A DNA stretch of 64,000 bases from a bacterium (GTDB lineage: Bacteria > UBA8248), in contig OY843592.1 in the NCBI GenBank assembly GCA_963692865.2, positions 3,040,001 to 3,104,000 on the forward strand, written 5' to 3'. Below the pieces are notes generated by a model. That model worked only from the letters and a program-made list of their open reading frames with translations. It ran no database searches and had not been told where the DNA came from. Positions 21,901 to 53,313 of the stretch are shown here, in pieces. The position numbers were made by a program, and so were the translations under genes. How positions within the stretch are numbered: the stretch's first letter is position 1; each line of letters opens with the position of its first letter.

Positions 21901-24900
21901 TGCGACCGGCTTCGACGGAGCGGAGGGCTTCGCGGCGGGCGTCAAGGCGTCCGTCGCCCCCGAAGCGGCGCCCGCGCCGAGCCCGTTCACCGCGCGCACC
22001 CGGAAGCGGTAGGTAACGCCGTTGGTCAGGCCGGTGACGGTGTGGCTCGTCCTGTCCGGACAGTCGGGTTCCGTCGCCGTAACGCAGATGTCGGTCCAGA
22101 CCGTCTCGAAATCTTCGTCCCCGGCCTGCTTGACGTATTGCCACTTCGTGATCGGCGAGCCGCCGTCGCCACCCGAGGTCCAGAAGAGCGTCGCGCTGCC
22201 GTCGCCCGACACCGCGCCCGGCTGCCCGCCCGGCCCGGTTATGGAAGGCGCGGAGGGCGTCGAGACGGGCGTCACGGCGTTCGTCGCCTCCGAAGCGGCC
22301 CCCGCGCCGAGCGCATTCACCGCGCGCACCCGGAAGCGGTAGGCAACGCCGTTGGTCAGGCCGGTGACGGTGTGGCTCGTCCTGTCCGGACAGTCGGGTT
22401 CCATCGCCGTAACGCAGATGTCGGTCCAGACCGTCTCGAAATCGCCGTCCCCGGCCTGCTTGACGTATTGCCACTTCGTGATCGGCGAGCCGCCGTCGCC
22501 ACCCGAGGTCCAGAAGAGCGTCGCGCTGCCGTCGCCCGCCACCGCGCCCGGCTGCCCGCCCGGCCCGGTTATGGAAGGCGCGGAGGGCGCCCCGACGGGC
22601 GTCACGGCGTTCGTCGCCCCCGAAGCGGCGCCCGCGCCGAGCCTGTTCACCGCGCGCACCCGGAAGCGGTAGGCAACGCCGTTGGTCAGGCCGGTGACGG
22701 TGTGGCTCCTCCTGTCCGGGCAGTCGGGTTCCGTCGCCGTAACGCAGATGTCGGTCCAGAACGTCTCGAAATCTTCGTCCCCGGCCTGCTTGACGTACTG
22801 CCACTTCGTGATCGACGAGCCGCCGTCGCCCCCCGAGGTCCAGAAGAACGTCGCGCTGCCGTCGCCCGCCACCGCGCCCGGCTGCCCGCCCGGCCCGGTG
22901 ATGAAAGGCGCGGAGGGCGTCGAGACGGGGTTGGAGGGCCTCACGGCGTCCGACTCGGGCGAAGCGGCGCCGTCGCCCTCGCCGTTCACCGCGCGCACCT
23001 TGAACCTGTATTCCGTGCCGAAGGCGAGGCCGGTGACGGTGTGCTTGGCCCTCTCCGGGCAGTCGGGTTGCGTCGCCGTAACGCAGATGTCGGTCCAGTC
23101 CGTCTCGAAATCTTCGTCCCCGGCCTTCTTGACGTACTGCCACTTCGTGATCGGGTGGCCGCCGTCGCCCCGCGATATCCAGGTCAGCGCGACGCTGCCG
23201 GCGCCGGCGGTCGCGCCCGGCTTCTCCGGCGGGGGGGGCGGCCCGGTGAGCGCCAGTTCGATCGATTCGGGCGAAGCGGCGCCGCCGCCGATCGCGTTCA
23301 CCGCGCGCACCTTGAACTTGTAGGACGTCCCGTTGAACAGGCCCGTCACGGTGTGAGCGTTGAAGAATACTTGCCGGCAGTCGGGGAGCGTATCGTGATC
23401 CGAGGCCATCGCGCAGGCGTCGGTCCAGCTTCCGTAGCCGCCGTAGTTCCCACCGGGCGGCTTGGACGCGAAGGCGTATTGAAACTTCGTGATCCCCGTT
23501 CCGCCGTCGCTCGGCGAGAACCAGTAAAGATTTACGCTCGCGTCGCCCGCCGTCACCGGGTAAAACGAAATCCAAGACGGCGTACCGGGCGGCGCGGCGG
23601 GCGTCACGGCGTTCGATTCGGGCGAATCGACGCCGGGGCCGCCGGTATTCACCGCGCGCACCTTGAACTTGTAGGTATTGCCGTTAATCAGGCCGGTGAC
23701 GGTGTGGCTGGTCCTGTTCGGGCAGGTGGCGTCCTGTGAGGTCTCGCAGATGTCGCTCCAGCTGCCGTAGCCGTAACTCTGCTTGTAGGCGTACTGCCAC
23801 TTCGTGATCGCCGATCCGCCGGCTCCCCCCGAGGTCCACGACAGCGTGACGCTTCGGTCGCCGGGGGTCACCCCCGGCTTCGAGGGCGCGGGGGGCGTCT
23901 CGATCTCGATGAAGTCCGTCTTCGAGAAATCCCGGCCCTCGACGCTCTGGGAGGATTTCAGGGAGACGTTCCACCTGCCGTTCCGAGCCGTGTTACCGGT
24001 GTTGCCATCCTCGTCGTGCAGCGTCGTCCCGTTCAGGACGATGGTCGTCACGCCGCCGTCGTTCATGATGTAGTCGTCCCCGAAGACCTGCGCCATCGTG
24101 CGCCCGTCGAGGGTGAGGCTCACGTGGAGCGCGGGGGCGGTCTCCGTGGCGAGCTTCCTCGCCGCGCGAATCGCCGCGCCCGACGCCGCCCGCAGACTTG
24201 CGTCCTTCCCGATGACCACCTTGCCCCCGCCGGAGAGATACACCCCCGCCGCGTCGCCCGAGCCGCCCGTCACCGAACCGTTCACCGTCACCGTCTGTTG
24301 TCGGTAGCCGTCCGTCCCCAGCTTCGCCGCGAGCTCCAGGGCTTGCGTCGTACTGTTGAACCCGCCTATCCGGACGCCGCTCGCCTTCGCTCCCGAAGCG
24401 GTGAGCGAAGCCCCCGCGCCGATGGAGATCGCTATCGTCCCCTCGCCCGTCCGATGCCCGGCGTAGACGCCGTGGGCGTCCGCGCCCGTCGTCGTGACAC
24501 TGGTGGAGGCGCCCCGAACGTCCAGGTCGATGTCGCCGCCGGCGCCGGTATGGACGCCGTATGCGCCGTGGGAATCCGCGCCGCCCGTGGTGATGGAGGC
24601 GCCGCCCGCCACGTCGATCTCCAAATTGCCCTTGCTGTTCGAGCTTTCGTTGTAATGCCAGGCGAATATCCCGTGGGCGTCGTCGCCCTCCGTCTCGATG
24701 GAGGCGCCGTCAAGGCCCAGATCGACGTTGGCCGACTTCGTCGCCGATGCTATTCCATAATGCAGGCCGTATATCCCGTGGGAGCCGTCTTTCTTCGTGT
24801 TGATCGACGCGCTGCCCGCCACGTCGATCTCGATGTCGCCGTAGATGGGGCCGGTGTTCGAAAGTATGGCATGCCAGGCGGAAATCCCGTGGGACCTCTC

Positions 24901-25593
24901 GCCCTCCGTGGTGATGGAAGCGCTGCCCGCCACGTCGATGTCGGTGTCGCCCTCGATCGTGGCGGTTTGGGTGCTGTCATACTGAAAGGCGTATATCCCG
25001 TCGGCTTCGTCGCCCTTCGTGGTAATCGACGCGCTGCCCGCCACGTCGATGTCGATTTTGCCATCCGCTTTGAAGCCCGGACCCGAGCCTATGTAGTGGT
25101 AGCCGTATATCCCGTGGGAGTCGTCGGAATTCGTGGTGATCGAAGCGCTGCCCTCCACGAGGATTTTGCCGTCCCGTTTGGTCAGGCCGTAGACGCCGTA
25201 TCCTTCATTCGTGGTGGAGGTCAACGTGATCGAGGCGGCTCCATCCACGGTGATGTCGTAGTCGCCGTTGCCCTGGTGCCGGGCCCAGACGCCGTGGATA
25301 TTGCCGGCGTTCGGCGCCGCCGTGGAGATGACGCCGCCCGTCACGTCGATGTCGATGTCGCCCGTATTCTGGTGGTTGCCGTAGACGGCGTGGTTGTCCG
25401 ACGTGGTGATGTCGAAGTTCGTCAGGTCGATGGCCAGGTCGCCGCTCGTCGTCTTCACGCACTTTACCCTTTTCCCGGCCGTGGGGTTGCCCGAAGCGGG
25501 GCATTCCTCCTGCTGCTGGGCCGTAGCCGGCCCGGCGCAGAGGATCAGGGCGGCGGCCAGGGCGACGGCGCCCGCGAGAACCCGCGCACTCAC
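18919..25593 (-). CDS. Giant autotransporter/adhesin: beta-helix-like repeats, 11 FN3 domains, C-terminal beta-barrel
   Basis: Signal-peptide h-region and ATA cleavage site; repeated DIDVAGSASITT.G..AHGIY; FN3 units (V.LSW...Y.FRVRAVN..G.G.AS); WLARFGRAVG linker; terminal GSLRW. Confidence 0.9.
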   Translation of the reverse strand: MSARVLAGAVALAAALILCAGPATAQQQEECPASGNPTAGKRVKCVKTTSGDLAIDLTNFDITTSDNHAVYGNHQNTGDIDIDVTGGVISTAAPNAGNIHGVWARHQGNGDYDITVDGAASITLTSTTNEGYGVYGLTKRDGKILVEGSASITTNSDDSHGIYGYHYIGSGPGFKADGKIDIDVAGSASITTKGDEADGIYAFQYDSTQTATIEGDTDIDVAGSASITTEGERSHGISAWHAILSNTGPIYGDIEIDVAGSASINTKKDGSHGIYGLHYGIASATKSANVDLGLDGASIETEGDDAHGIFAWHYNESSNSKGNLEIDVAGGASITTGGADSHGAYGVHTGAGGDIDLDVRGASTSVTTTGADAHGVYAGHRTGEGTIAISIGAGASLTASGAKASGVRIGGFNSTTQALELAAKLGTDGYRQQTVTVNGSVTGGSGDAAGVYLSGGGKVVIGKDASLRAASGAAIRAARKLATETAPALHVSLTLDGRTMAQVFGDDYIMNDGGVTTIVLNGTTLHDEDGNTGNTARNGRWNVSLKSSQSVEGRDFSKTDFIEIETPPAPSKPGVTPGDRSVTLSWTSGGAGGSAITKWQYAYKQSYGYGSWSDICETSQDATCPNRTSHTVTGLINGNTYKFKVRAVNTGGPGVDSPESNAVTPAAPPGTPSWISFYPVTAGDASVNLYWFSPSDGGTGITKFQYAFASKPPGGNYGGYGSWTDACAMASDHDTLPDCRQVFFNAHTVTGLFNGTSYKFKVRAVNAIGGGAASPESIELALTGPPPPPEKPGATAGAGSVALTWISRGDGGHPITKWQYVKKAGDEDFETDWTDICVTATQPDCPERAKHTVTGLAFGTEYRFKVRAVNGEGDGAASPESDAVRPSNPVSTPSAPFITGPGGQPGAVAGDGSATFFWTSGGDGGSSITKWQYVKQAGDEDFETFWTDICVTATEPDCPDRRSHTVTGLTNGVAYRFRVRAVNRLGAGAASGATNAVTPVGAPSAPSITGPGGQPGAVAGDGSATLFWTSGGDGGSPITKWQYVKQAGDGDFETVWTDICVTAMEPDCPDRTSHTVTGLTNGVAYRFRVRAVNALGAGAASEATNAVTPVSTPSAPSITGPGGQPGAVSGDGSATLFWTSGGDGGSPITKWQYVKQAGDEDFETVWTDICVTATEPDCPDRTSHTVTGLTNGVTYRFRVRAVNGLGAGAASGATDALTPAAKPSAPSKPVATAGDGSVALSWTPGSDGGSSITKWQYVKQAGDEDFETVWTDICVTATEPDCPDRTSHTVTGLTNGVTYRFRVRAVNGLGAGAASGATNAVTPVSTPSAPSKPVATAGDGSVALSWTPGSDGGSPITKWQYVKQAGDGDFETVWTDICVTAMEPDCPDRTSHTVTGLTNGVTYRFRVRAVNALGAGAASEATDALTPAAKPSAPSKPVATAGDGSVALSWTPGSDGGSSITKWQYVKQAGDGDFETVWTDICVTAMEPDCPDRTSHTVTGLTNGVTYRFRVRAVNRLGAGAASGATNAVTPVSTPSAPSKPVATAGDGSVALSWTPGSDGGSPITKWQYVKQAGDGDFETVWTDICVTAMEPDCPDRTSHTVTGLTNGVTYRFRVRAVNALGAGAASEATDALTPAAKPSAPSKPVATAGDGSVALSWTPGSDGGSSITKWQYVKQAGGGAFETAWRDVPGSGASTRRHTVASLVNGVAYRFKVRAVNAAGEGAASPASDAVTPVWSPPAMRGWLARFGRAVGSQAVEMISSRMNAPAPGGAKVTLGGRSVDLNADPDRYLAKEGAGFGSASLTHGGTDSRGLARARAANRPANGEEDSPAYREMTMSEFLRGGSFHLASAGEGEAVPGGRWSLWGRGARTSFEGGGAAAIEGDVSTAMLGVDYEKNAVLMGVALSHARGEGGFESGGRSGVEATLTSAHPYLRFALNERVTAWGVLGMGRGEMTLEMDRKDVRQKAEAETDIEMRMAAFGLRGELAKVGGFDLAVKSDVLLAQTDADAKDGLDAVSAEATRLRVMLEASREVSMKDGGAFRPSVEAGLRHDGGDADEGAGVEVGGSLRFTSPALGLTLEFKARGLLTHEEEDAADWGAGGMIRIAPGEAGRGLALTVRPEMGETAGGAARLWGLKDASRLAKEEVRGLDPRVRAEVGYGLDAWGGLLTPYAGLSVSEGGSGIYRLGGRFKVGERLSMSVEGDVRERENDDPAHGVALRGSLRW
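20400..23020 (-). repeat. Intragenic tandem FN3-coding repeats, period 312/330 bp
   Basis: Near-identical antisense ORFs start at 20774, 21086, 21398, 21710, 22022, 22352 and 22682. Confidence 0.95.
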
Positions 25594-39934: not shown

Positions 39935-40570
39935 CTACACCGTGATGACGATGCCGCATCTTCGGCCCGCCTGGCGAACGTCCGAGAGAAACATCGTGTC
40001 GAACAATCCATCGCGCGCGTCCGTGATACTAAAATCCTCAGGCTTCACGCGGTCTCCGAAGAACAGGTATGCGGTGTCCGGGTCGCACTGGTTCGAGGTC
40101 CAGAGCAGACCATGGACTTCAGGAAACTGGTGGTGAATGGCGCTCGCCCACTGGGCGGTTTCGGCATAGAGCTTAGGAGATGCGCCGATCAACGAACTGC
40201 GAGCGATGCGCCATCGCTTGAGATCGGGGGCGCGTAAGGATGCGAGGCGCAAATCCCGTAGGACTTCCAGCCGGGCGTGCGCACGGCTTTGCACTAGCGT
40301 TCTGGGAACGGTTTTGCGTTCCGCTGTGACGGGAACATCGTGGAAGATCGTTTCATGTATCGCCGCCTCCAGCGTGTCGGCCGCGTAAAGAGACGGGACG
40401 CATTTGCCCGCCGCATCGTAGACGGGTGCGAAGCGCGTGGGAGAACCCTTGCAAGGATTGAAAACGCTCATGCCGTAATTCCTGTCTTGCACCCGGTGCA
40501 CGAGCACACCGGCTTCGAGTGTAATGGCGCTGGGCTCCGCCAGCGCAGCCTGAGGTTTTCGAATCGTCAT
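39935..40570 (-). CDS. RES domain protein (putative toxin)
   Basis: FNP...TRFAP...SLYAA.TLEAAIHETIFHD...GLLWTS, matching the R-E-S pattern. Confidence 0.8.
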   Translation of the reverse strand: MTIRKPQAALAEPSAITLEAGVLVHRVQDRNYGMSVFNPCKGSPTRFAPVYDAAGKCVPSLYAADTLEAAIHETIFHDVPVTAERKTVPRTLVQSRAHARLEVLRDLRLASLRAPDLKRWRIARSSLIGASPKLYAETAQWASAIHHQFPEVHGLLWTSNQCDPDTAYLFFGDRVKPEDFSITDARDGLFDTMFLSDVRQAGRRCGIVITV

Positions 40571-40584
40571 CCAGGGGACACGCC

Positions 40585-41259
40585 CTAACCGACAGCCGGA
40601 TCGGCAAGTCTCCGGGCCGCATCGACGACGGCGTCCGGTTCGGAGAGGCGCTCCTGCGGCTCGTCGCCGTCCAGCCAGCCGTTACCGGATGCGAACCACA
40701 TGGCGATTTGCCAACCCGTCATGCCCTTCGGAAGAGCGGCGAGAATCGCCTTGATGACCGGCAGCGGAACTCCGTCGGCGAACTGAAAGGCCGGATAGTG
40801 GTCAACTCCCGAGCGGCGCACCGCGAACAGCCTGCCCTCCCGTTTCCAGCGGGAGGCGGGCTCGCTCTTGTTGCGCGGCTTCAAGCCCGATACTGCGCGA
40901 ACCTCGGCCCCGGTCAAAAGGGGCGTTTCCTGAATATACCGGGAGCGCAGCCTGGCATTGTCGATTTCGAGTTCATTCTCGACCCGGGGGCGGGGCGCGT
41001 CCGAGAGAATGACATCAAGTATTTTCTCGATATTCGCTTCGGATAATCTAGATCCGCGCTCGGCCGCAAGTGAAGGCAGAACTTCGATCGCTCGTTCGAG
41101 CAGTTCCGCCCGCCCCTCCGCGCGTTCGCCCACGAGGAGCCAGGCGCCGGGCAGAGGATCCTCCGAGCGGGAGGAACCACCGATCCTCCTCCGCAGACTG
41201 GCTGGCAGCCGCTCGATTTCGCCGGGCGTCAGATCGATCAGCGACAACGTTTCACTCAT
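40585..41259 (-). CDS. Putative antitoxin partner of RES (MbcA/Xre-like C-terminus)
   Basis: ASRWKREGRLFAV...YPAFQF...WFASGNGWLDGDEP; immediately upstream of the RES gene. Confidence 0.7.
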   Translation of the reverse strand: MSETLSLIDLTPGEIERLPASLRRRIGGSSRSEDPLPGAWLLVGERAEGRAELLERAIEVLPSLAAERGSRLSEANIEKILDVILSDAPRPRVENELEIDNARLRSRYIQETPLLTGAEVRAVSGLKPRNKSEPASRWKREGRLFAVRRSGVDHYPAFQFADGVPLPVIKAILAALPKGMTGWQIAMWFASGNGWLDGDEPQERLSEPDAVVDAARRLADPAVG

Positions 41260-41744: not shown

Positions 41745-42911
41745 CTAGTCGCGCCTGGCGCCAAATACGCCGGAAACGTCGTGAATATCTCCACCGATCC
41801 TGTCGTTTTCAGCAACAGACGTCCTGAAACTGAACAAGCCACCCACTTCCTCGTGGCTCGGACCGTAGAATCGGCCTGAGATGCCTCTCCTCGCGCGATG
41901 TCGACTGACATTTGATTCCACCTCACTGATAGGAACGACTCCGAACGATCCGTTATGGAGTTTCAGCCCTGCCCAAGTAACATCATTGAAATTCGCACCA
42001 GTTTGTTCGTCTTTCATATTACTGAATTCAACATCCACCAGCAGACCAGAATTTCCTAGCGGATTGAAAACCGTAATTGTGGCATCGCCTTTGACGAAAC
42101 TATCCGGCTCGGCAATACGGATGCCAACCATAATCCCGGACCAAGTCGCGGCGCCGCCGGCTAAAACATCCGGATTCGAATCGATTGCGTTTCCTATCGA
42201 ATAGGCGCCATAGTAATTTGCGGAAATCCGGTTTTCTTCAGACGCTATCTCGATCCCGGGTGTCTTGAGAAGGAAAAAACTATGGTCGATCCAGCCGGCC
42301 AGGGCGCGGTAGTTGGTCGCATCGCCTCCTCCTCCTGAAACCTGCGTCCTTTCCGCCAAAGACACGCCGCGGCGGCGTTCGATGAAACGAAAGCCGGAAA
42401 AGTCAAACTTGCCAACCGCCCTGTAGTGAACCGGTCCGAGCCCTCCCTCACATCCCAATAACAGCGCCGCACACGTTACGGCGTCAGGAGGAGGAGGATC
42501 AGCACCAAATCGAGCCAACGCGAGAGATTTCGAATTGCTCCTTAAGTCGCTCAAAACGCCTTCGATTTCATTCGTCTCGAGAATCAAGGACTTGAAGCCA
42601 GGCACCCCGCCGGCAACCTCATACTCGACCGCGCCGTCGTCGGCTACGATCACCACACACGCGGGGCCGCCTGCCGGACACGACACTTCGACGTTGCCAT
42701 GCTCCTCGGAGGTGCCCGGCCGGACCGTGAACTCCTCCATCGGGGCAAGACCGTGGTTCGCGGGCGCCCCGGACAGAGCTACTGTGGCTTCTTCGTCCAC
42801 GGGTGGCATGGGCATCGAATCGACCACCGACCCGCTGCCTCCACAACCAGCCAACATCACCAAGAGCGGCAAGGCTACAAGAAGCGAAAGCTGATTCTTC
42901 CTATTCAACAT
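41745..42911 (-). CDS. Surface lipoprotein with TbpB-like C-terminal beta-barrel
   Basis: Lipobox LAGC-GGSG; GAATWSG, GRFYGPSHEEVGG.F and terminal GVFGARR. Confidence 0.7.
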   Translation of the reverse strand: MLNRKNQLSLLVALPLLVMLAGCGGSGSVVDSMPMPPVDEEATVALSGAPANHGLAPMEEFTVRPGTSEEHGNVEVSCPAGGPACVVIVADDGAVEYEVAGGVPGFKSLILETNEIEGVLSDLRSNSKSLALARFGADPPPPDAVTCAALLLGCEGGLGPVHYRAVGKFDFSGFRFIERRRGVSLAERTQVSGGGGDATNYRALAGWIDHSFFLLKTPGIEIASEENRISANYYGAYSIGNAIDSNPDVLAGGAATWSGIMVGIRIAEPDSFVKGDATITVFNPLGNSGLLVDVEFSNMKDEQTGANFNDVTWAGLKLHNGSFGVVPISEVESNVSRHRARRGISGRFYGPSHEEVGGLFSFRTSVAENDRIGGDIHDVSGVFGARRD

Positions 42912-43296: not shown

Positions 43297-44604
43297 CTAG
43301 GCGTCTTTCTTGTTCAGGAACGAATCCTTGAGGTATTCGACGGCGCGGTCGAGCTGGGCGTCCTTCTCTTCCTCCTCGGCCGCGCCCTGCGACTCGCCGG
43401 ACGGCGCGCCGCCCGGAGCGCCTTCTTTCTGCTCCCCCGCTTTCTCCGACTCGCCAGGCAGGTGGCCGGGCAGGTCCTTCTCGCGCATCGCGCTCGCGCG
43501 CCTCACCGCCTCGCTCACGATGTCGGGCTCGATCCCCTCGCCCTGGATGCGCCTTCCTTTGGGGGTGAAATAGAGCGCGGTGGTCAGCCGCAGTCCCGAG
43601 CCGTCCGAGAGCGGAACGACGGTCTGCACCGACCCCTTGCCGAACGTCTTGACGCCGACGAGCTTGGCGCGTCCCAAATCCTGGAGCGCGCCCGCCACGA
43701 TCTCCGACGCGCTCGCGCTGCCCGCGTTCACGAGCACCGCCATGGGAATCTTCCCGCCCGGCGTCTTGCCCGTCGAGGTGAAACGATGCTCCTGGTCGGT
43801 CATGCGGCCCTTGGTGTAGACGATCAAGCTGCCGGCCCCGAGGAAAATATCGGACACCGAAACGGCCTGGGAGAGAAGCCCGCCGGGGTTGTTGCGCAAA
43901 TCGAGAACGAGCGCTTTGGCGCCCTTGTCCTCGAGTGCGGACAGGGCGTCCCGCACCTCCTCGTCGGTTTCGTTCTGGAAGCTGCGAACCCGGATGTACG
44001 CGATGTCCTCGGGCAGCATGCGGCTCCTCACGCTCTTGATGCGGATGATCCGGCGCGTGATGGTGAAGGGGAGCAACTCCTTCTCCCCCTTGCGCCTCAC
44101 GGTGATCTTCACCTTCGTGCCGGGCTTGCCCCGAAGCTTCTTGACGACCTCCTGGAGCGGCATGTCTTTCGTGGGTTCTTTCTCGATGAAGATGATCTGA
44201 TCGCCCGCCTGCACGCCGGCCTTGTACGCCGGGGTATCCTCGATGGGCGTCACCACGGTAAGTACGTCGTCCCGGATCGATATCTCCACGCCCAGGCCCC
44301 CGAAGCGGCCCGTGGTCTCGACCTGCATCTCCCTGAAATACTCGGGGCTCAGATAGCTCGTGTGGGGGTCGAGCGTGCGGAGCATGCCCTGGATGGCGCC
44401 GCGAATCAGCTTCCTGGCCTCGACCTTGTTGACGTAGTTCTCCTCGACGAGGCTCAGCACCTCGCTGAACGCCCGCAGTTCGGAATACGCGCTCGTCTCG
44501 CTCGCGGAGAGATTCGCGACGGGGCCCGCCGCCATCCCCGCGACGAACAGCGCCAGAACGCCGGCCCAAATCATCCACCCGGACAAACGATATTTTTTCG
44601 ACAT
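43297..44604 (-). CDS. ctpA: Carboxyl-terminal processing protease (S41A)
   Basis: LDPHT, GLGVEI (PDZ), DLRNNPGGLL, SASASEIVAGALQD, TFGKGSVQ. Confidence 0.94.
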   Translation of the reverse strand: MSKKYRLSGWMIWAGVLALFVAGMAAGPVANLSASETSAYSELRAFSEVLSLVEENYVNKVEARKLIRGAIQGMLRTLDPHTSYLSPEYFREMQVETTGRFGGLGVEISIRDDVLTVVTPIEDTPAYKAGVQAGDQIIFIEKEPTKDMPLQEVVKKLRGKPGTKVKITVRRKGEKELLPFTITRRIIRIKSVRSRMLPEDIAYIRVRSFQNETDEEVRDALSALEDKGAKALVLDLRNNPGGLLSQAVSVSDIFLGAGSLIVYTKGRMTDQEHRFTSTGKTPGGKIPMAVLVNAGSASASEIVAGALQDLGRAKLVGVKTFGKGSVQTVVPLSDGSGLRLTTALYFTPKGRRIQGEGIEPDIVSEAVRRASAMREKDLPGHLPGESEKAGEQKEGAPGGAPSGESQGAAEEEEKDAQLDRAVEYLKDSFLNKKDA

Positions 44605-44760: not shown

Positions 44761-45011
44761 GGGGTTGTTGAAAAAACCTCGCCGCCTCGTTCTGAACAGC
44801 GGCGAAGCAGCGTATCGAAGGGGATGCCTTCTCGCCCCGGCGCGAGGCGTTCGACTTCCCAAGCCCTGCGATACAAACGCTCCCTCCCCGGTCGCGTATG
44901 ACCTTCGGAGGCTATTCAGGATGAGGAAAGAGGCGTCGTCCGTTTGCGGGGGTCGAACGCGACCGGGGAGGGAGTGTTCGCTGTCCTTGACGGGGCTTTT
45001 TCAACAACCCC
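44761..45011. mobile_element. MITE with REP cargo
   Basis: GGGGTTGTTGAAAAA and TTTTTCAACAACCCC perfect 15-bp inverted ends; CATG adjacent on both sides. Confidence 0.75.
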
Positions 45012-45035: not shown

Positions 45036-45563
45036 TCATTCAGTGGAGCGGTCCTTCTCGGAAGAAGAGTCTTCCAGGACGGGAGCCAGCAGGTGATGGA
45101 TGATCTCGGCGACGAATTCGCCGCGCCCCCGCACGCCGGCCTTTGTGTAGAGGGTGCTGGCCTGCAGCCGGGTGGTGTTTTCCTTGACCTGGCGCAGTTC
45201 GGCGATTTCGGCAAAGCGGTAACCTTTGATGATCATCCATGCGATTTCTCTTTCACTGGGGGTCAGTTTCCACTCATCCATCTGTTCTTCGATGCCGGCG
45301 GCAAGCTCGCCTGCGAGCGCCTTGTTCCGGGTCTCCTCCCGTTGCAGGCGCGTTCGCAAGTCGGCGATATCCTTCAAACTGAGGATGAGGACCACCAACA
45401 CGGAAAGAAATACGAACGCTTCGACAATAAAATGCGTAGAGGCGAATTCTCCCTCCAAAGATGCGTCTGCGATCAGGTCATAAATCAGGAACAATGCGGC
45501 CGGAAAAAGTATGGCTACCCGGAAAGTTCTATTTGAACTTTGTTCTGGTAGTATTCTTCTCAC
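45036..45563 (-). CDS. Membrane-anchored LuxR-type HTH regulator; start uncertain
   Basis: Two TM segments, a coiled coil, then LTPSEREIAWMIIKGYRFAEIAELR...TTR.Q...LY.K.GV.GR. Confidence 0.8.
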   Translation of the reverse strand: MRRILPEQSSNRTFRVAILFPAALFLIYDLIADASLEGEFASTHFIVEAFVFLSVLVVLILSLKDIADLRTRLQREETRNKALAGELAAGIEEQMDEWKLTPSEREIAWMIIKGYRFAEIAELRQVKENTTRLQASTLYTKAGVRGRGEFVAEIIHHLLAPVLEDSSSEKDRSTE

Positions 45564-45779
45564 ATCAGATCGTCCTATTTTCGGACTGTACAGGCACCAT
45601 TCTGCGTTGTGGCGGCAGGCAAGAATTATATCGATAGGATATCTTAATTTCACAGCCTTTGAAAATGGATTGATTTGTCGAATGCCGAACACACCCGATG
45701 CGCCTCTGTCTCAACCTGGGCGCATGCGCACGGCGAGTACGACTCAATGACAAAAAGGGATTGTCCCGGACGAGAGGGG

Positions 45780-46214
45780 TCAATTCCGACCAGTGCGGGA
45801 AGTCCTGTTTTTGCCTTTCATCCAAAGGGCAGCGCGCCGCAGCCTGCGGAACCAGGGGTACAGCATTCGCACGCGCCCTGGATTCGAAGAAAACCACTTC
45901 GCGAACCTGTTGAACCAGTCGCCTCCGCTCGTCATCGCCTCGAGCGCGGTCATGGCCGCAGCGCCCTGATAGTTCCGGCCGTCCAGGACGAGAATCATCC
46001 CCTCCTCGATGTCGCAGCCTTCCCGCCGCAACTCGGCGACGAGTTCGGGCGCCTGCCCGGCGTCGATGAGTTTCAAGGTTCGCCCGGTTTGCGTCTCGAA
46101 CCTCGATTTTCGCGCATAAAAGCTGCAAAACGGGCACTCGCCGTCATAGAGCAAAAAGGCGTCCCGTGAAGATAAATCGGCGGATTGAACGCGCCCGGCC
46201 TCTGGTGAAGTCAT
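45780..46214 (-). CDS. DCC1-like thiol-disulfide oxidoreductase (DUF393)
   Basis: LLYDGECPFC motif, G.AA segment and LYP tail. Confidence 0.85.
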   Translation of the reverse strand: MTSPEAGRVQSADLSSRDAFLLYDGECPFCSFYARKSRFETQTGRTLKLIDAGQAPELVAELRREGCDIEEGMILVLDGRNYQGAAAMTALEAMTSGGDWFNRFAKWFSSNPGRVRMLYPWFRRLRRAALWMKGKNRTSRTGRN

Positions 46215-46411
46215 GCTTGCCCCTCCGGTTCCACGCCCATATTCTCCTCACATAAAACATACAGCCAAGAGATGATCCCCCCGCGTGAACTCCGCAACAG
46301 AGCGAAATCGGCGGCGTCCCTGAAGATAATGCCCGCATCAGCCTCACGGCTTCAGCGAGATCAAGGCAATCCGGATTGCTACCTGAACATTGTAAAGTTT
46401 CATGGTTGAAA

Positions 46412-47779
46412 TCATTTTCTCCTCCGCTTCCGGCGTCGCTCATGAAGAGGCACCTCCAAGGGCTTGATCCACGCCTTTGGCCAAATCGAGCGCGGCTCCT
46501 TCAAGAGGTTGACGTCGGGGTCCAGCAAGTGTTGTCGCCTCCGGCCGTTCAGGGACACCCTGGCGTCGACGCGGATCGAGGATACCTTTATTCCTTCCGC
46601 CCGCAACCGGTCGCCCAGATAGTAGACGAATTGATGAATCATGTCCGGTCTGCCGGCCATTTTCCTCGCCTGCCAGGATTTGATGTAGCGGGTGGGAGAT
46701 ACTTTATACTCGTTTCCCGACTCGTCCGCGACCAGAAACCGCACCCGCCCGGATTTGCTGCGAAGCTTCATGTGCCAGGCGTAGAGATGTCCCTCTTCGG
46801 TCCAATTCACATTTCCGGGATAGAGCCAGTGCCTCAGCGGCATCAACAGTTGCCAGCAGACATAGGCCGCGAGGAATGTAAATACGACCCGGGAACATCG
46901 ATTTGCGCCGGGAGGTTGCGCCGTCTGGTTTCTTTTCAGGATTACATATCGCCTGGGCCAGTCGGGAGGAAAAAACACCGTTGAGAGGGCGATGGCGAAC
47001 CAGGGGAATATACCGATGTGAAAGATGACGGCGTTGGTGAGGTTGAAAAACAGCACGCCTGCGAATGCCGCAACCCTCGTCCGCCTCCACATCAGGAGCG
47101 GCACGATGAGCAGGTCGAAGAACAGAGCGCCATAGTTCATGAGCATTACGACCGATTCCTGACCGAACAGGGGGCCGAGCAAGGGATAGTCCATGCGTTT
47201 ATGCAGCCAGCTTCTCAACGGCTCCCCGGCCAGCCAGTCGGCGTTGATCTTGGCGATGCCGCCGTAGAAATAGACGACGCCCATCTGGAAGCGCAGAATC
47301 CACAGACTCCACACGGGGACGGTATCCGTTCCCGCGCAGAGTCCGAACTTCGCATCCAGCGACACGGCCCGGTTCGCCGGGACCACTGTCATCAGAAAGC
47401 TTACCAGGCACACGAGATAAAAGTGATTCAGGTAGCGCGCCTGCTCGAGCAGGAAGACATAGCTGAAGGCGATGAAGAAAAGAGCGGCGGCGACGCGATA
47501 GAACAAGCCGAAGGTGATGAGCAGGGCCAGAAAACCCAGCCCCAGGAAATGCCAATACATTCCATCGCCGGGCCAGGGCGCGACCCAGTCGAACCCGAAG
47601 TAGCGGAAATGAAAATCCGGCGTGATCCAGTAGTTGCGTATCCAGCCCTTCTTGAAATAACGCGCGACTTCCCACAGCATGATCAGCCCGAAAAGTATAC
47701 GGACCATCACCAGCGAGGCAATATCGGTGGGCTCCGCAAGCCGCTCACGCCACTCCGTTACCACCTGCTTTGCGCTCAT
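46412..47779 (-). CDS. Vitamin K-dependent gamma-carboxylase-like (HTTM) protein
   Basis: SL...RILFG; YLNHFYL; YFYGGIAKINADWL; IGIFP; WTEEGHLYAWHMKL; PDMIHQF; SLNGR..Q.L.DP, recalled as collinear with GGCX motifs. Confidence 0.9.
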   Translation of the reverse strand: MSAKQVVTEWRERLAEPTDIASLVMVRILFGLIMLWEVARYFKKGWIRNYWITPDFHFRYFGFDWVAPWPGDGMYWHFLGLGFLALLITFGLFYRVAAALFFIAFSYVFLLEQARYLNHFYLVCLVSFLMTVVPANRAVSLDAKFGLCAGTDTVPVWSLWILRFQMGVVYFYGGIAKINADWLAGEPLRSWLHKRMDYPLLGPLFGQESVVMLMNYGALFFDLLIVPLLMWRRTRVAAFAGVLFFNLTNAVIFHIGIFPWFAIALSTVFFPPDWPRRYVILKRNQTAQPPGANRCSRVVFTFLAAYVCWQLLMPLRHWLYPGNVNWTEEGHLYAWHMKLRSKSGRVRFLVADESGNEYKVSPTRYIKSWQARKMAGRPDMIHQFVYYLGDRLRAEGIKVSSIRVDARVSLNGRRRQHLLDPDVNLLKEPRSIWPKAWIKPLEVPLHERRRKRRRK

Positions 47780-47973
47780 TTTGTTTTCCTCGAACAAGTT
47801 CCGAGGGTTCGCATCAGGCTTGCGCCATCTTTTCTATGCGCCAAGCGGAATCTTGCAAATGGAGGGCAGCGCCGCGGCAAGCGGCAACTCGCAAGAAAGA
47901 CTTGTCCGAAGCGATTGCAATTCAGCGAGGCGCATGGAATTTCCTGTTCGCTCTCCTTAAAGAGCAATCGAAT

Positions 47974-50754
47974 CTATGGCGTACGTTTGGCCCCGAACGC
48001 GCCGACGATGCTCTGGAGGCTGTCCACCGTGTTGGCTCCGAAAGTTCCCGCCACAGAACCGGGATGATCGGCGGGGTCGGCGCGGTTGCCCAAGAACTTA
48101 CCGCCCCACTTGCCCGTGAACGCGACGCCGTCGTCCGTCGTCTCGCTGGTGTCGCCGTCGAAGTTCCCCCCGAGGTCGCCGTCGGTGATGCCGGCGGAAC
48201 CCAGAGTCAACGCGGGCAGGGACACGCCCCCATCCGTCCTGCCCCCCGTAATCGACCCCGAGACGCTTCCCAGCGCAGCCGCGTCACCAAAATCGACCGC
48301 CAGATCCGCTCGCGCGTCGAAATAATCGAATACGGGGTTTGCGTCCGCATCCGCCTTCGTCATGTACAGACCGGTCGCGGGCCCGCTGTAGGTCGCCGCG
48401 CCCGTCAGGCCGGCCAGGTTGTCGTTTTCGAAGGGATCGTTGCCCCCTGCGGCGACGCCCAGTTCGTACGAGCCGGTGTAGTTTCCGTCGCCGGGGTCCT
48501 TGTAGATGAACAGCCACGAACCCAGCGAGAGGTAGTCTTGGTCCGTGTTCTCCTGGCTGTCGGTGTAGGCGTCCCAGTTAAAGATTCCATCAGAAACATC
48601 CTTGTGGGTCTCGACGCCCCTCCAGCCCGCCGCCGGGCTGTCCGTCATCCTCGATGACACGTCCTGATCCGTCGTGCTCAAAGTCGAGACGGTGGAGCCG
48701 GTTTCGCGTTTAAAGGTGAACTGCACGTCCCCGCTCGCATCGCGCTCCACGAGGAAATACGAAGGATCCAAGACGCGACCGCCGGGGGTGTGGGACGATT
48801 GCGTGGTGCTGCTCATTTCTCTCGACGTGGGCGTGTGCCCCAGAAGCCATGCTCCCCCGGCTCTCAGGATGTGATCCGCAGCGCCCCTCGCCAGCTTCGG
48901 GGTCTCGTTGATTTCCATGCTCGTCTCCGGCAACGCGGGCGTGGACGCGGACCCCACAGGCCGCGCTCCCCCGGCCGTCAGGATATGCACCGCGGCGCCT
49001 GCCGCCAGAACCGGGTTCTCATTCACTTCTTTCAGCAAAGACCCGTAGCGAGCTGATGGGGTTCGTTTGGCCCCGAACGCGCCGACGATGCTCTGGAGGC
49101 TGTCCACCGTGTTGGCCCCGAAGGTGCCCGCCACGGAACCGGGATGATCGGCGGAGTCGGCGCGGTTGCCGAAGAACTTACCGCCCCACTTGCCCGTGAA
49201 CGCGACGCCGTCGTCCGTCGTCCCGCTGGTGTCGCCGCCGAAGTTCCCCCCGAGAGCGCCGTCGGTGATGCCGGCGGAACCCAAGGTCAACGCGGGCAGG
49301 GACACGCCCCCATCCGTCCTGCCCCCCGTAATCGACCCCGAGACGCTTCCCAGCGCAGCCGCGTCACCAAAATCGACCGCCAGATCCGCTCGCGCGTCGA
49401 AATAATCGAATACGGGGTTTGCGTCCGCATCCGCCTTCGTCATGTACAGACCGGTCGCGGGCCCGCTGTAGGTCGCCGCGCCCGTCAGGCCGGCCAGGTT
49501 GTCGTTTTCGAAGGGATCGTTGCCCCCTGCGGCGACGCCCAGCTCGTACGAGCCGGTGAAGCTCCCGTCTTCGGGGTCCTTGTAGATGAACAGCCACGAA
49601 CCCAGCGAGAGGTAGTCCTCGTCCGCGTTGCCTTGGCTGTCGGTGTAGGCGTCCCAGTTGAAAATGCCGTCCGTCGCATCCTTGTGGGTCTCGATCCCTT
49701 TCCAGCCAGGCGCCAGATCATCCATCATTCTCGATGAAACGTCTTCATCCGTCGTGCTCAGGGTCGAAACGGTGGAGCCGGTTTCGCGTTTGAAGGTGAA
49801 CTGCACGTCCCCGCTCGCATCGCGCTCCGCGAGGAAATACGAGGGGTCCGAGACCCGCCCGCCGGGGGTGTGGGACGATTGCGTCGTGCTGCTCATCTCC
49901 GACACTCGACCGTCGATGAGGGAGGACGTAATGATGAGGAAGGAAGACGATTGCGTCGTGCTGCTCGTCTCCTGCAACGCGGACCCCAGAGGGCGCGCTC
50001 CCCCGGCTTTCTGGATGCGCTCCGCGGCGCCCCTCGCCAGCTTCTGGTCCGCCTTGACTTCCTTCAACAAAGACCCTTTGCGAACCGATGATGCCAAATT
50101 GCCGATTCTGCCATCATCATCGTCGTCGTCGCTGTCGTTATCGTTGTCATTGTCATTGTCGTCATCGCTGTCGTTGTCGTCGTTATCATTATCGTTGTCG
50201 TTATCGTTGTCGCCGGAGCCGGGAGGCGAGTTTCCAGGCTGATTCACGGGCGGCGAGGCGCCGTCATCATCGTCGTCGTCGCTGTCGTTATCGTTGTCAT
50301 TGTCATTGTCGTCATCGTTGTCGTTGTCGTCGTTATCATTATCGTTGTCGTTATCGTTGTCGCCGGAGCCGGGAGGCGGGTTCCCAGGCTGATTCACGGG
50401 CGGTGAGGCGCCGTCATCATCGTCGTCGTCGCTGTCGTTGTCATTGTCGTCATCGTTGTCGTTGTCGTCGTTATCATTATCGTTGTCGTTATCGTTGTCG
50501 CCGGAGCCGGGAGGCCGGTTTCCAGGCTGATTCACGGGCGGCGAGGCGCCGTCGTCATCGTCGTCGTCGTCGTCTGACTCCGACATTATCATCGTGCTGG
50601 ATGCGGCCTCGGCCCTGGGGGAAATGGCGTCCCCCACAATGGTTAAGAGCGCGGACACGGTTCCGCCCCCACCGTAACCCCAGACGATGAAAACAAGCGC
50701 GAACGAGATCGATATGGCGAAAAGCGAAAATTTAGAGAGGGGTTTTCTTGCCAT
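47974..50754 (-). CDS. Exported protein with Asp/Asn-rich repeats and two TbpB-like domains
   Basis: AAGGAG RBS; signal-like N-terminus; three copies of GASPPVNQPGNxPPGSG-(DN)n-D6; duplicated domain with ATYSGPATG, GKWGGKF.G, GSVAGTFG, GAFGAKR. Confidence 0.8.
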   Translation of the reverse strand: MARKPLSKFSLFAISISFALVFIVWGYGGGGTVSALLTIVGDAISPRAEAASSTMIMSESDDDDDDDDGASPPVNQPGNRPPGSGDNDNDNDNDNDDNDNDDDNDNDSDDDDDDGASPPVNQPGNPPPGSGDNDNDNDNDNDDNDNDDDNDNDNDNDSDDDDDDGASPPVNQPGNSPPGSGDNDNDNDNDNDDNDSDDDNDNDNDNDSDDDDDDGRIGNLASSVRKGSLLKEVKADQKLARGAAERIQKAGGARPLGSALQETSSTTQSSSFLIITSSLIDGRVSEMSSTTQSSHTPGGRVSDPSYFLAERDASGDVQFTFKRETGSTVSTLSTTDEDVSSRMMDDLAPGWKGIETHKDATDGIFNWDAYTDSQGNADEDYLSLGSWLFIYKDPEDGSFTGSYELGVAAGGNDPFENDNLAGLTGAATYSGPATGLYMTKADADANPVFDYFDARADLAVDFGDAAALGSVSGSITGGRTDGGVSLPALTLGSAGITDGALGGNFGGDTSGTTDDGVAFTGKWGGKFFGNRADSADHPGSVAGTFGANTVDSLQSIVGAFGAKRTPSARYGSLLKEVNENPVLAAGAAVHILTAGGARPVGSASTPALPETSMEINETPKLARGAADHILRAGGAWLLGHTPTSREMSSTTQSSHTPGGRVLDPSYFLVERDASGDVQFTFKRETGSTVSTLSTTDQDVSSRMTDSPAAGWRGVETHKDVSDGIFNWDAYTDSQENTDQDYLSLGSWLFIYKDPGDGNYTGSYELGVAAGGNDPFENDNLAGLTGAATYSGPATGLYMTKADADANPVFDYFDARADLAVDFGDAAALGSVSGSITGGRTDGGVSLPALTLGSAGITDGDLGGNFDGDTSETTDDGVAFTGKWGGKFLGNRADPADHPGSVAGTFGANTVDSLQSIVGAFGAKRTP
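47977..49895 (-). repeat. Intragenic direct duplication, period 1080 bp
   Basis: Near-identical ORF-track entries at 48086/49166 and 48284/49364. Confidence 0.92.
50110..50578 (-). repeat. Three 138-150-bp units coding poly-Asp/Asn with Pro-rich spacers
   Basis: GGCGCCGTC anchors at about 50257, 50407 and 50545. Confidence 0.95.
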
Positions 50755-51094
50755 CGGTTATTCTCCTTTCCGATATTCATCAAACTCGTCGTCGGCATGG
50801 GAGACGCCGCCCAACGTCAATGAAAGGGCGTGGCGCAACCCGGCGCAACAGGGAATGCTTATTGGACAGTCTAGCGACTGAGAGGCGACGTCCTCCATAT
50901 ATTGTTGGTTATATATTTCCCGAATCCATACCAACGCTATATATGAGAGGCCCGATTTTGCGGAAAGTGATGCCCGGCGCTGGCGAATGCGCCGAATCGA
51001 AGAAGGCGCCGCATTCTTGCAGCGCCCGGAATGTCAAAAACTGAACCGGAGCGGCCCGCGCCCGTTCCGGCCGATGGGAATTTCTGTAAATATC

Positions 51095-51144
51095 GATAAA
51101 TTCAGGGGGTTTTTTGATAAATTGACGACGTATTTCGATAAATT
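51095..51144. promoter_or_regulatory. Three phased direct repeats GATAAATT (putative operator array)
   Basis: Starts at 51095, 51116 and 51137, exactly 21 bp apart. Confidence 0.5.
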
Positions 51145-51276
51145 TCCTGCTCCCGGCGGAGGCGCAACTCCCCCGCCGCCGGAAACATGGTGAGAATACA
51201 CGAGCCTGCGGGCGCGATCATCACGGCAAATGCGCGCATCTGCGGGCAAATGCGCGCGTCGTTTCACGGGGAACGT

Positions 51277-53313
51277 TCAGAGGATGTCTTTCGTCCGCTC
51301 GGCGATGCGCTCCGGCGTGAGGCCGAAATGCGCATAAATTTCCTTGTAAGGCGCGCTGGCGCCGAAGCGATCGATTCCGAGCACGGCGCCGTCCTCCCCC
51401 ACCCATTCGCGCCAGCCCATGGTGGCGCCCGCCTCAACCGCCACCCTCGCCTTCACTCCCGCCGGAAGAACGGAATCGCGATAGGCGGGAGATTGCTCCC
51501 GAAAAAGCTCCCAACTCGGCATGCTCACGACCCGGGCGTCTATTCCATCCATCGCCAACATACTTTGCGCCTCCACCGTGAGATGCACCTCCGAGCCGGT
51601 GGCGACCAACACGGCCCGGGGAGAACTCCCCTTTTCCGGTGAGATGACGTAGGCCCCCCGCGCCAGCGCATCCGCTCCGTTTTCCGCCGAACGCTCCAGG
51701 ACGGGCAGGCCCTGCCGGGTCAACACGAGCATGGTCGGGCCTTCGAGGCGCTCGACCGCCACCCGCCAGGCCGTGGCGGCTTCATTCGCGTCGCATGGGC
51801 GTATGACGACGATGCCCGGCATGGCGCGAAGAGAGGCGAGGTGCTCGATCGGCTGGTGGGTGGGACCATCCTCGCCCAAGCCGATGGAGTCGTGCGTCAT
51901 CACGTAGATGACGGGCAATTCCATCAGCGCCGCGAGTCTTATGGCCGGCCGGGCGTAATCGGTGAACGTGAAGAAGGTGGCCGCATACGGGCGAACTCCA
52001 CCATGCAGGGCCATCCCCGAGCAGGCTGCTCCCATGGCGTGTTCTCGGATTCCCCAGTGGATGTTGCGGTTGGCGTAATCTCCTCTGGCGAAATTTCCCG
52101 ATTCTTTGATGAGCGAATTGTTGGAAGCCGCCAAGTCCGCGCTCCCGCCGACAAGCCAAGGAATGGCGGAGGCGATTTCATTCAGCACCTGGCCGGACGC
52201 CGCCCGCGTGGCCAGCGCCCCACCCCCGGCCTCGAAGCGGGGAATGCGGCTCTCCCAACCGGCAGGCGGTTCACCTTTAAGCGCCGCCTGAAATTTTGCG
52301 GCCAACCCCGGGTTCTCCGATTCAAATTCCGCGAACCGGCGATTCCAGTCCGCCTCCAGCGCGGCGCCTCGAGGAACCGCTTCCCCCATGTGGGCGGACA
52401 CTCCATCGGGCACCAGGAACGTCTCGCCCTCGGGCCAGCCGTAGTTCCTTTTCGTGGCTTCGACTTCTTCACTCCCCAGGGGAGCGCCATGCGCCCGCGC
52501 GGTATCCTGATATTTCGGCGAGCCATACCCGATGTGCGATCGAACGACGATCAAGGACGAGCGCTCGACCTGCGCCTTCGCCAGATTGAGCGCACCGGAA
52601 ATCCGGGATAAATCCTCCGCGCTGTCGCCGAGATTCTGCACGTGCCAGCCGTACCCCTCAAAGCGCTTCACCACGTCATCGGAATAACTGAGCGACGTTT
52701 CGCCATCGATGGTGATGCGGTTGTCGTCATATACGCATATCAACTTGCCAAGACCCAGATGCCCCGCCAAGGATGCCGCTTCATGGGAAGCGCCCTCCAT
52801 GACATCGCCGTCGCTCATGAACACGTACGTATGGTGATCCACAATCGAATGGCCTGGACGATTGAAAACGCTCGCCAAATGCGCCTCCGCCATCGCCATT
52901 CCGACCGCGTTCATGAAGCCTTGCCCGAGCGGGCCCGTGGTGGTCTCGACACCCGGCGTAAGCCTGTATTCGGGATGCCCCGGCGTCTTGCTCCCCCACT
53001 GACGAAAGCGGACGATCTCAGGGAGCGAAAGTTCATAACCGCTCAGATGGAGAATCGCATAAAGAAGCATTGAAGCATGACCACACGAGAGCACGAAGCG
53101 GTCGCGGTCAAACCAGCCGGGATTTCGGGGATTGTAGCGCAGATGGTTCGTCCACAACTCATACGCCAGCGGCGCAAGAGCCATCGGCGTGCCCGGATGG
53201 CCACTGTTCGCCTCTTGCACGGCATCCATCGAAAGCGTGCGTATGGTGTGAATCGATTGCTCGGAGATGCTGGTGCCGGAGAACATTTCTTTCTCTTTCG
53301 AAAATTTCGTCAT
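51277..53313 (-). CDS. tkt: Transketolase
   Basis: [49 protein letters not shown]; start may be 53286. Confidence 0.97.

Follow-up and report, generated by a model that had tools for sequence, protein, structure and literature searches.

A possible quinone-dependent protein carboxylation system in bacteria: a GGCX homologue that accompanies exported poly-aspartate proteins

We analysed a 64,000-nucleotide stretch of contig OY843592.1 (positions 3,040,001 to 3,104,000; hereafter the window, whose own numbering is used below) from a bacterium of the GTDB lineage UBA8248, focusing on a four-gene cassette that includes a homologue of the animal vitamin-K carboxylase GGCX. The genome carrying the window, G000, is 4.15 Mb in size and 97% complete; G, L, P and X numbers are our labels for genomes, loci, proteins and RNA runs, respectively. 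Between tkt (51277-53313) and ctpA (43297-44604) there are four open reading frames (ORFs), all on the minus strand, and no other gene. Gene 1 (47974..50754) encodes a probably exported poly-Asp protein of 926 aa and gene 2 (46412..47797) the GGCX homologue, with an HTTM and a VKGC lumenal domain and a length of 461 aa when read from a TTG. They are followed by a gene for a DCC1-like CxxC protein (45780..46214) and one for a LuxR-type regulator with two transmembrane (TM) segments (45036..45692). An earlier note, written from the letters of the window, had described four co-oriented genes at this site, in agreement with the ORF positions.

The product of gene 1 starts with its single hydrophobic segment (residues 6-24) and contains, at residues 61-214, a 154-aa Asp/Asn tract of three ~50-aa repeats (50113..50574, minus strand) with 69 Asp, 36 Asn, 16 Pro, 12 Gly, 11 Ser and 0 Glu. 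The codons of the tract are mixed (GAC 47, GAT 22, AAC 25 and AAT 11), which rules out a pure microsatellite origin, and among the 35,908 six-frame ORFs of G000, gene 1 is the only one with at least 16 Asp per 50 residues. The three orthologues in other species of the genus retain Asp-rich tracts with different spacers; the copy in G010 is split by a frame change into two overlapping frames (L005:6581-7857), by either assembly error or decay. The earlier picture of an exported-type protein with a D/N tract of about 155 aa, essentially free of Glu, was accurate for this part of the protein and overlooked the rest: the remaining ~710 residues form two copies of a TbpB/HpuA-like handle-plus-barrel lobe (49057..50112 and 47977..49056, minus strand) that are 78.9% identical over 360 aa.

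The gene 1 protein has no direct Pfam match, and a sequence search with the lobe against the PDB gave none either. A model of the second lobe computed from a 74-row alignment (pLDDT 85.7, compared with only 31 for a single-sequence model) consists of a handle domain and a C-terminal 8-stranded TbpB-type barrel, and matches HpuA, TbpB, hemophilin and fHbp with E values of 5e-6 to 1e-5 and TM-scores of only 0.3-0.4; PF01298 was found on four of the top lobe homologues. Only four of the 78 lobe homologues, 77 of them non-self, have at least 16 Asp in 20 residues (P0001, P0003, P0005 and P0006, all among the top six matches), and the poly-Asp tract is thus an addition to the lobe family and not a family trait. 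Many of the homologues begin with a lipobox, the Cys of which is replaced by Tyr in gene 1 (WGYGGGG vs. WGCGGGG in P0003). G000 has one Slam gene (PF04575, E 4e-28, at C1:1253133), adjoining a different barrel lipoprotein. From the modelled fold, we predict that the gene 1 product is a Slam/type 11 secretion system cargo. It shares the handle and the 8-stranded C-terminal barrel with such cargo (TbpB, HpuA, hemophilin and fHbp) but differs in the lost lipobox Cys and in the distance of ~1.8 Mb between the Slam gene and the cassette; cargo can be unlipidated or have disordered or repeat N-termini, according to the accessible text of bioRxiv 10.1101/2024.09.26.615229. In the descriptions of Slam cargo available to us, we did not meet an Asp/Asn tract of this kind or a linked carboxylase. 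A second TbpB-barrel lipoprotein, lacking poly-Asp, is encoded 2 kb from the cassette (41745-42911, minus strand), and at least six other TbpB-barrel proteins are encoded in G000.

Gene 2 is the only HTTM gene in G000. It carries the HTTM domain (PF05090, E 2e-89) and the VKGC lumenal domain (PF22777, E 7e-44) on one chain, probably starting at the ATG at 47779 and not at the TTG, and aligns with human GGCX (E 3e-45) over human residues ~54-515; the C-terminal ~240 residues of the animal enzyme are unmatched. We mapped human residues to gene 2 by hand from the pairwise alignment and assessed conservation over a 99-row alignment. According to the accessible text of PMC12647623, K218, D263, W223 and F286 of human GGCX bind and activate the quinol, N159, H160 and Y395 contact the carboxylate, F299, M401 and M402 serve CO2, Y395 and R436 anchor the upstream residue, and R406 and H440 take part in product hand-over; the role of N290 is taken from the accessible part of PMC13486548. 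N159, H160, K218, W223 and F299 are invariant in every ungapped row, and D263, F286, N290, W399 and M401 are also retained in gene 2. The residues of quinol activation (K183, D228, W188, F251 and N255 for human K218, D263, W223, F286 and N290) and those of carboxylate and CO2 (N124, H125, F264 and M343 for N159, H160, F299 and M401) are thereby present. The codon of Lys183, which corresponds to the catalytic Lys218 and is invariant in all 95 ungapped rows, is at 47249..47251 on the minus strand.

The substitutions concentrate elsewhere. K217 is Ala, and the segment WTEEGHLYAWHMKLRSK (46754..46804, minus strand; human 390-406 in the alignment) has His for Y395 (residue 337), Lys for M402 (344) and Arg for H404 (346), with further changes of R406 to Lys, R436 to Lys and H440 to Arg. 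Y395 of the Glu-specific enzyme and its hydrophobic pocket for the upstream residue are absent, and the 384-415 carboxylation region is present. His at 395 is found in 78 of the 99 rows and Lys at 402 in 61. As Y395H, M402K and H404R turn the upstream-residue groove basic, it would fit a run of acidic residues. Charge over the whole domain gave no usable rule: the lumenal domain has a net charge of +10 here, but the H/K/R subtype spans -9 to +13. The earlier note had read gene 2 as a full-length HTTM/GGCX homologue on the basis of quoted motifs, which both Pfam domains and the human alignment confirm; of the catalytic regions it named, His160 and K218 stand, whereas K217 does not.

Other branches of the enzyme family differ in these positions and in their surroundings. 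In a separate clade, which retains Y395 and M402 (L182, L186, L189, L190, L191 and L192, in the family of G048), the enzyme gene is flanked by an imelysin-like lipoprotein gene on one side and a TonB-dependent receptor gene on the other (by Pfam in L182; imelysin only in L189). The C-terminal ends of these imelysins read DxDGD or PSDSD and might be an Asp target within a metal-uptake operon. In 19 alignment rows, mostly proteobacterial, D263 is His. In this clade (L039, L041, L049, L054, L055, L067, L079, L177-L179 and kin), the HTTM and lumenal parts are frequently separate ORFs and DCC1 frequently follows; its enzymes may use another quinone. A D263H enzyme with DCC1 also occurs at L052, in the cultured Thalassotalea sp. 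ND16A. In seven Planctomycetota (L022, L024, L031, L062, L066, L069 and L074), the enzyme is without the H/K/R signature, and its gene comes after one for a small lipoprotein-like product that Pfam does not match; in L062 and L069, it precedes a prepilin-type gene.

The cassette is movable. In three species of the genus that are without the enzyme (G001, G008 and G022), tkt directly adjoins ctpA, and in a fourth, G002, the site is occupied by other genes; in G020, the cassette occupies the same site, and in G010 and G012, it lies between different flanks. Within the genus, 4 of 23 genomes were found to have the enzyme; none of 18 more distant relatives searched did. With the site empty in relatives and the flanks varying between congeners, the cassette behaves as an accessory unit.

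The link between the enzyme and poly-Asp is tightest within the genus. In G000, the only HTTM gene adjoins the only poly-Asp ORF. A six-Asp codon run is present in all four enzyme genomes of the genus vs. 4 of 19 genomes without the enzyme, and 6/6, 1/1, 3/3 and 8/9 of the genome-wide six-Asp matches of the four lie inside the adjacent gene. As these four have one ancestral cassette in common, they count as one event, and we turned to 78 enzyme loci from other species, 75 of them from outside the genus. A six-Asp run was found in 13 of the 75, whereas the six-Asp densities of the individual genomes predict no more than 3.7 such loci (Poisson 1.4e-4); merging close kin leaves about 10 separate outside lineages (Poisson ~0.005, computed by hand). 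The neighbours are mostly unrelated exported proteins on separate branches of the enzyme tree, type 9 secretion system cargo among them. Pilin-like proteins (L009-L011) and a subtilase (L038) are further examples, and in L015, PepSY-like lipoproteins flank the enzyme on either side. The enzyme gene is directly followed by one for a small exported protein in L021 and directly preceded by one for a 2,429-aa cell-surface protein in L035; in two Sorangium genomes (L075 and L076), the poly-Asp gene also lies directly upstream, and in L075, from the cultured S. cellulosum So ce26, it encodes an exported protein with a D8 run. The run is placed in the C-terminal tail in L008 and L048 and just past a signal-like segment in L049. 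L053 is an exception among the 13: its protein lacks a signal-like start and resembles a cytoplasmic acidic protein. Asp-rich neighbours also occur in L174, L176, L178, L185 and L190, from a set of 20 further hand-picked loci. In a FastTree phylogeny of 92 of the 99 rows, from which fragments and one gapped locus were left out and whose backbone is poorly resolved, the window enzyme falls in a clade of eight rows, all with poly-Asp neighbours. Poly-Asp neighbours, covered by the survey of homologue neighbourhoods that the earlier note had proposed, are enriched beside the enzyme across phyla, and the refuting condition of that note, a lack of enriched acidic exported proteins next to homologues, did not come true.

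The signal extends from the loci to whole genomes. A six-Asp run is present in 64 of the 75 outside enzyme genomes, many of which have tens of them, vs. 8 of 37 enzyme-negative relatives of G000, a comparison that is not taxon-matched. Inspection by eye of ten of the richest genomes showed that most of the runs belong to proteins beginning with a signal-like segment, where they are located just behind the cleavage site, at the C-terminal end or in loops. Of three taxon-matched tests, two showed more poly-Asp in genomes with the enzyme. For the order of G072, 4 of 9 genomes with the enzyme vs. 1 of 112 without have four or more seven-Asp runs (Fisher 7e-5), while poly-Glu was flat (0.67 vs. 0.56 per genome), ruling out general acidity as the cause for this order. 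In the family of G048, there are 0.28 runs per Mb in 94 genomes with the enzyme and 0.16 in 57 genomes without (P 0.005). The groove motif follows the same trend: among the 75 outside genomes, after dropping three gapped rows, those with the H395/K402/R404 subtype have a median of 2.19 six-Asp matches per Mb (47 genomes), compared with 0.75 in the others (25 genomes; P 2.6e-4).

The DCC1 gene of the cassette contains a DxxCxxC thioredoxin-like domain (PF04134, E 2e-9), as the earlier note had indicated, with D24, C27 and C30 invariant in 12 rows. The protein is without a predicted signal or TM segment and would therefore act from the cytoplasm. DCC1 follows the enzyme in all four cassette-bearing congeners, and it was confirmed beside 9 of the 75 outside enzyme loci, where nine candidates were picked by eye and then profile-scanned. 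The window DCC1, matched in 17 of 22 other congeners, shares 68% identity with a paralogue encoded at another site of G000 and only ~25% with the eight aligned DCC1s of outside loci, so the pairing of enzyme and DCC1 arose at least twice. It probably assists redox cycling where VKOR is missing; this is the weakest step of our proposal.

The LuxR gene does not belong to a conserved operon. It has two TM segments and a GerE/LuxR match below threshold. It probably starts at the GTG at 45563, after a promoter-like site of its own, and in G010, G012 and G020, it travels with the cassette in inverted orientation, which rules out the four-gene operon as a conserved unit. That it regulates the cassette is a guess. 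Contigs of the metatranscriptome X1, a run from a related strain found using this stretch, cover the cassette, and one of them (47738-48174) spans the gap between genes 1 and 2, a weak hint of their co-transcription, as contigs show no single transcript. No X1 contig crosses the other two gaps, and a second RNA run, X6, had none over the cassette. Our promoter and terminator scan of the locus performed near chance level.

The host has the resources that such an enzyme would use. G000 carries two PF02621 (MqnA/MqnD-family) genes, i.e., genes of the futalosine pathway to menaquinone, and the haem-copper oxidase COX1; classical MenB is matched in G000 below the cut-off only.

We propose that the gene 2 enzyme uses menaquinol to beta-carboxylate the Asp runs of exported proteins, and give this reading a probability of roughly 0.55. 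The chemistry follows that of GGCX as described in the accessible text of PMC12647623. The gene 1 product would be exported by the Slam of G000, and the active site of the enzyme would face the periplasm. Lys183 would deprotonate menaquinol, and O2 would then be used to make a strong base that takes a proton from the carbon next to the side-chain carboxylate of Asp, to which CO2 is added; by analogy with the Glu C-gamma in GGCX, the site would be the beta carbon. With His, Lys and Arg in place of the hydrophobic pocket, the enzyme could walk processively along an acidic run without a propeptide. The product would be poly-beta-carboxy-Asp, giving a dense Ca2+- or metal-binding patch on the predicted surface protein. 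Where a genome has many exported poly-Asp proteins, as does G116, the run would serve as a portable tag for this modification. Beta-carboxy-Asp in proteins and poor use of Asp by the liver carboxylase are said to have been noted in older reports, which our literature search did not retrieve.

Several observations weigh against this reading. Everything beyond the genes and their sequences, including the activity itself, is deduced. Y395 is His in gene 2, and mutation of Y395 impairs human GGCX (PMC12647623, accessible text). We found no VKOR (PF07884) in G000, at 97% completeness, and among proteobacterial carriers of the enzyme, MqnA/D was found in none of four and MenB above the cut-off in none of five tested; lacking either route, these carriers show that menaquinone cannot be the general cofactor. 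No six-Asp run was found within ~8 kb at 62 of the 75 outside loci, nor anywhere in 11 of the 75 genomes. The third taxon-matched test gave no support: six-Asp runs occur in 99 of the 131 genomes from the family of G077, but the enzyme in only two, with 5 and 0 runs. Four of the nine enzyme genomes in the order of G072 are without a seven-Asp run, though two of these have a shorter poly-Asp neighbour. The P values above overstate the significance, as kin are not independent.

Genomes without the enzyme can have exported poly-Asp proteins, too. From the order of G072, we took 40 regions for 59 enzyme-negative seven-Asp sites and 20 regions for 35 enzyme-positive sites. By a crude hydrophobicity score, 17 of the 40 seven-Asp ORFs in genomes without the enzyme and 15 of the 21 in genomes with it had a signal-like start, and 9 of 10 enzyme-negative poly-Asp genomes scanned had no PF05090 match, and exported poly-Asp therefore does not need the enzyme. 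Ten of the 17 belong to one subtilase-like family, however, whereas the enzyme-positive ones are mostly singletons; what accompanies the enzyme is the spread of poly-Asp to many unrelated proteins. In the subtilase-like loci (L218, L220, L221, L241-L243, L245, L248, L249 and L255), a very long run comes right after the signal, and in the four loci inspected, an ECF sigma/anti-sigma-like pair, labelled by eye, is beside the gene. In L038 and L176, a similar subtilase adjoins the carboxylase.

The occurrence of such proteins in enzyme-negative genomes and the missing poly-Asp neighbour at most enzyme loci would also be expected if the enzyme and poly-Asp proteins were co-selected in a Ca2+- or mineral-rich niche, with the enzyme acting on a small molecule, lipid or glycan and unmodified poly-Asp binding cations alone. 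The one bacterial orthologue with a known substrate, MloH, acts on a PKS/NRPS intermediate, and lipid chemistry has been proposed for viral homologues (PMC13486548; both as far as the accessible texts go). The cassette, however, is without a biosynthetic gene, unrelated poly-Asp proteins repeatedly adjoin the enzyme, and the enrichment is specific to Asp where tested and tracks the basic groove motif. We thus consider co-selection unlikely.

A different explanation keeps the Asp runs as the target and changes the outcome: the enzyme would hydroxylate, epimerise or cross-link them, or be an uncoupled quinol epoxidase activated by the acidic tract. A Leptospira orthologue, of which we confirmed only the existence of the gene, reportedly epoxidises but does not carboxylate Glu peptides. 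The replaced Y395 is consistent with another product, as are the 19 mostly proteobacterial rows with His at D263 and the absence of menaquinone genes from the genomes tested in that clade, and truncated viral homologues have been read as epoxidases (PMC13486548, accessible text). Against this, F299, N159, H160 and M401 are all present in gene 2, together with the 384-415 region that the viral epoxidases are missing, and we find another product quite unlikely. Lastly, a chance pairing, in which a surface gene that happened to travel with an orphan enzyme gained an expanded low-complexity repeat, would suit the tandem-repeat structure of the gene 1 tract and the single event behind the four congeners but is very improbable given the ~10 outside lineages left after merging kin (Poisson ~0.005), the mixed codons and the four orthologous tracts that differ in spacers and are all Asp-rich.

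Beyond the carboxylation of Asp runs by the gene 2 enzyme, we entertain more tentatively, at less than even odds, a quinone-dependent protein carboxylation system of many phyla in which poly-Asp runs are a portable tag converted to poly-beta-carboxy-Asp, a counterpart of the animal Gla chemistry. Such a run would be added behind the signal peptide, at the C terminus or in loops of exported proteins that are unrelated to one another. Three subfamilies would share the work: a basic-groove one for Asp runs, a Tyr-retaining one serving imelysin/TonB metal-uptake operons and a proteobacterial one, with D263H, working without home-made menaquinone.

Comparison with known systems places gene 2 in the HTTM/VKGC family but apart from its described members. 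Human GGCX has the same HTTM and lumenal domains and the same K218, D263, N290, W223, F286, N159, H160, F299, W399 and M401, and acts, as predicted for gene 2, on exported proteins with clustered acidic residues. It is, however, 758 aa long vs. 461 aa, differs at the sites of K217A, Y395H, M402K, H404R and H440R, and has VKOR and a Glu-rich propeptide substrate, whereas the candidate substrate here has 0 Glu and no recognisable propeptide. MloH, compared by description only, is likewise a bacterial HTTM-family enzyme; in the malonomycin biosynthesis of Streptomyces, it carboxylates the alpha position of an aspartyl unit in a PKS/NRPS intermediate (PMC12647623, PMC12186529 and bioRxiv 10.64898/2026.08.19.745780, accessible texts) and thus provides a precedent for the use of Asp in the family. 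Its PKS/NRPS context contrasts with the cassette, which has no such gene and whose candidate substrate is a ribosomal exported protein. A Melghirimyces HTTM-DCC1 fusion, described with DUF5819 in the accessible text of bioRxiv 10.64898/2026.08.19.745780, similarly links HTTM to a DCC1-like domain; there, DCC1 is fused and that text proposes no substrate, whereas the cassette encodes DCC1 separately and its enzyme carries the lumenal domain on the HTTM chain. The vitamin K epoxidase-desaturase modules of giant viruses (PMC13486548) also place a nonanimal GGCX homologue beside a redox partner, but according to the accessible text, the viral enzymes are without the 384-415 carboxylation region that gene 2 has. 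Gene 2 is thus a member of the HTTM/VKGC family that lacks the Glu-specific features (the Y395 pocket, the C-terminal part and VKOR) and the context of MloH. We found no publication tying bacterial GGCX homologues to poly-Asp proteins in a search that left subscription literature largely outside.

Other features of the window are recorded for completeness. At the ctpA end of the cassette, positions 44761-45011 hold a MITE-like dispersed repeat with terminal inverted repeats and 128 BLAST matches in G000, and a second repeat family is found near 51075-51275. A RES-domain gene (PF08808) and its upstream, unannotated 224-aa partner (39935-41259, minus strand) resemble what we take to be a toxin-antitoxin pair. 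An ORF of 2,224 aa extends over 18919-25593 on the minus strand.

GGCX-like enzymes are widespread in bacteria, and the literature we found names a substrate only for MloH. Our analysis supplies candidate protein substrates, with Asp as the residue and a sequence signature to go with it, and identifies cultured strains suited to tests. If true, it would be a new bacterial post-translational modification and a route to surfaces binding Ca2+ and metals very strongly, and it would give a clue to the origin of animal vitamin-K carboxylation.

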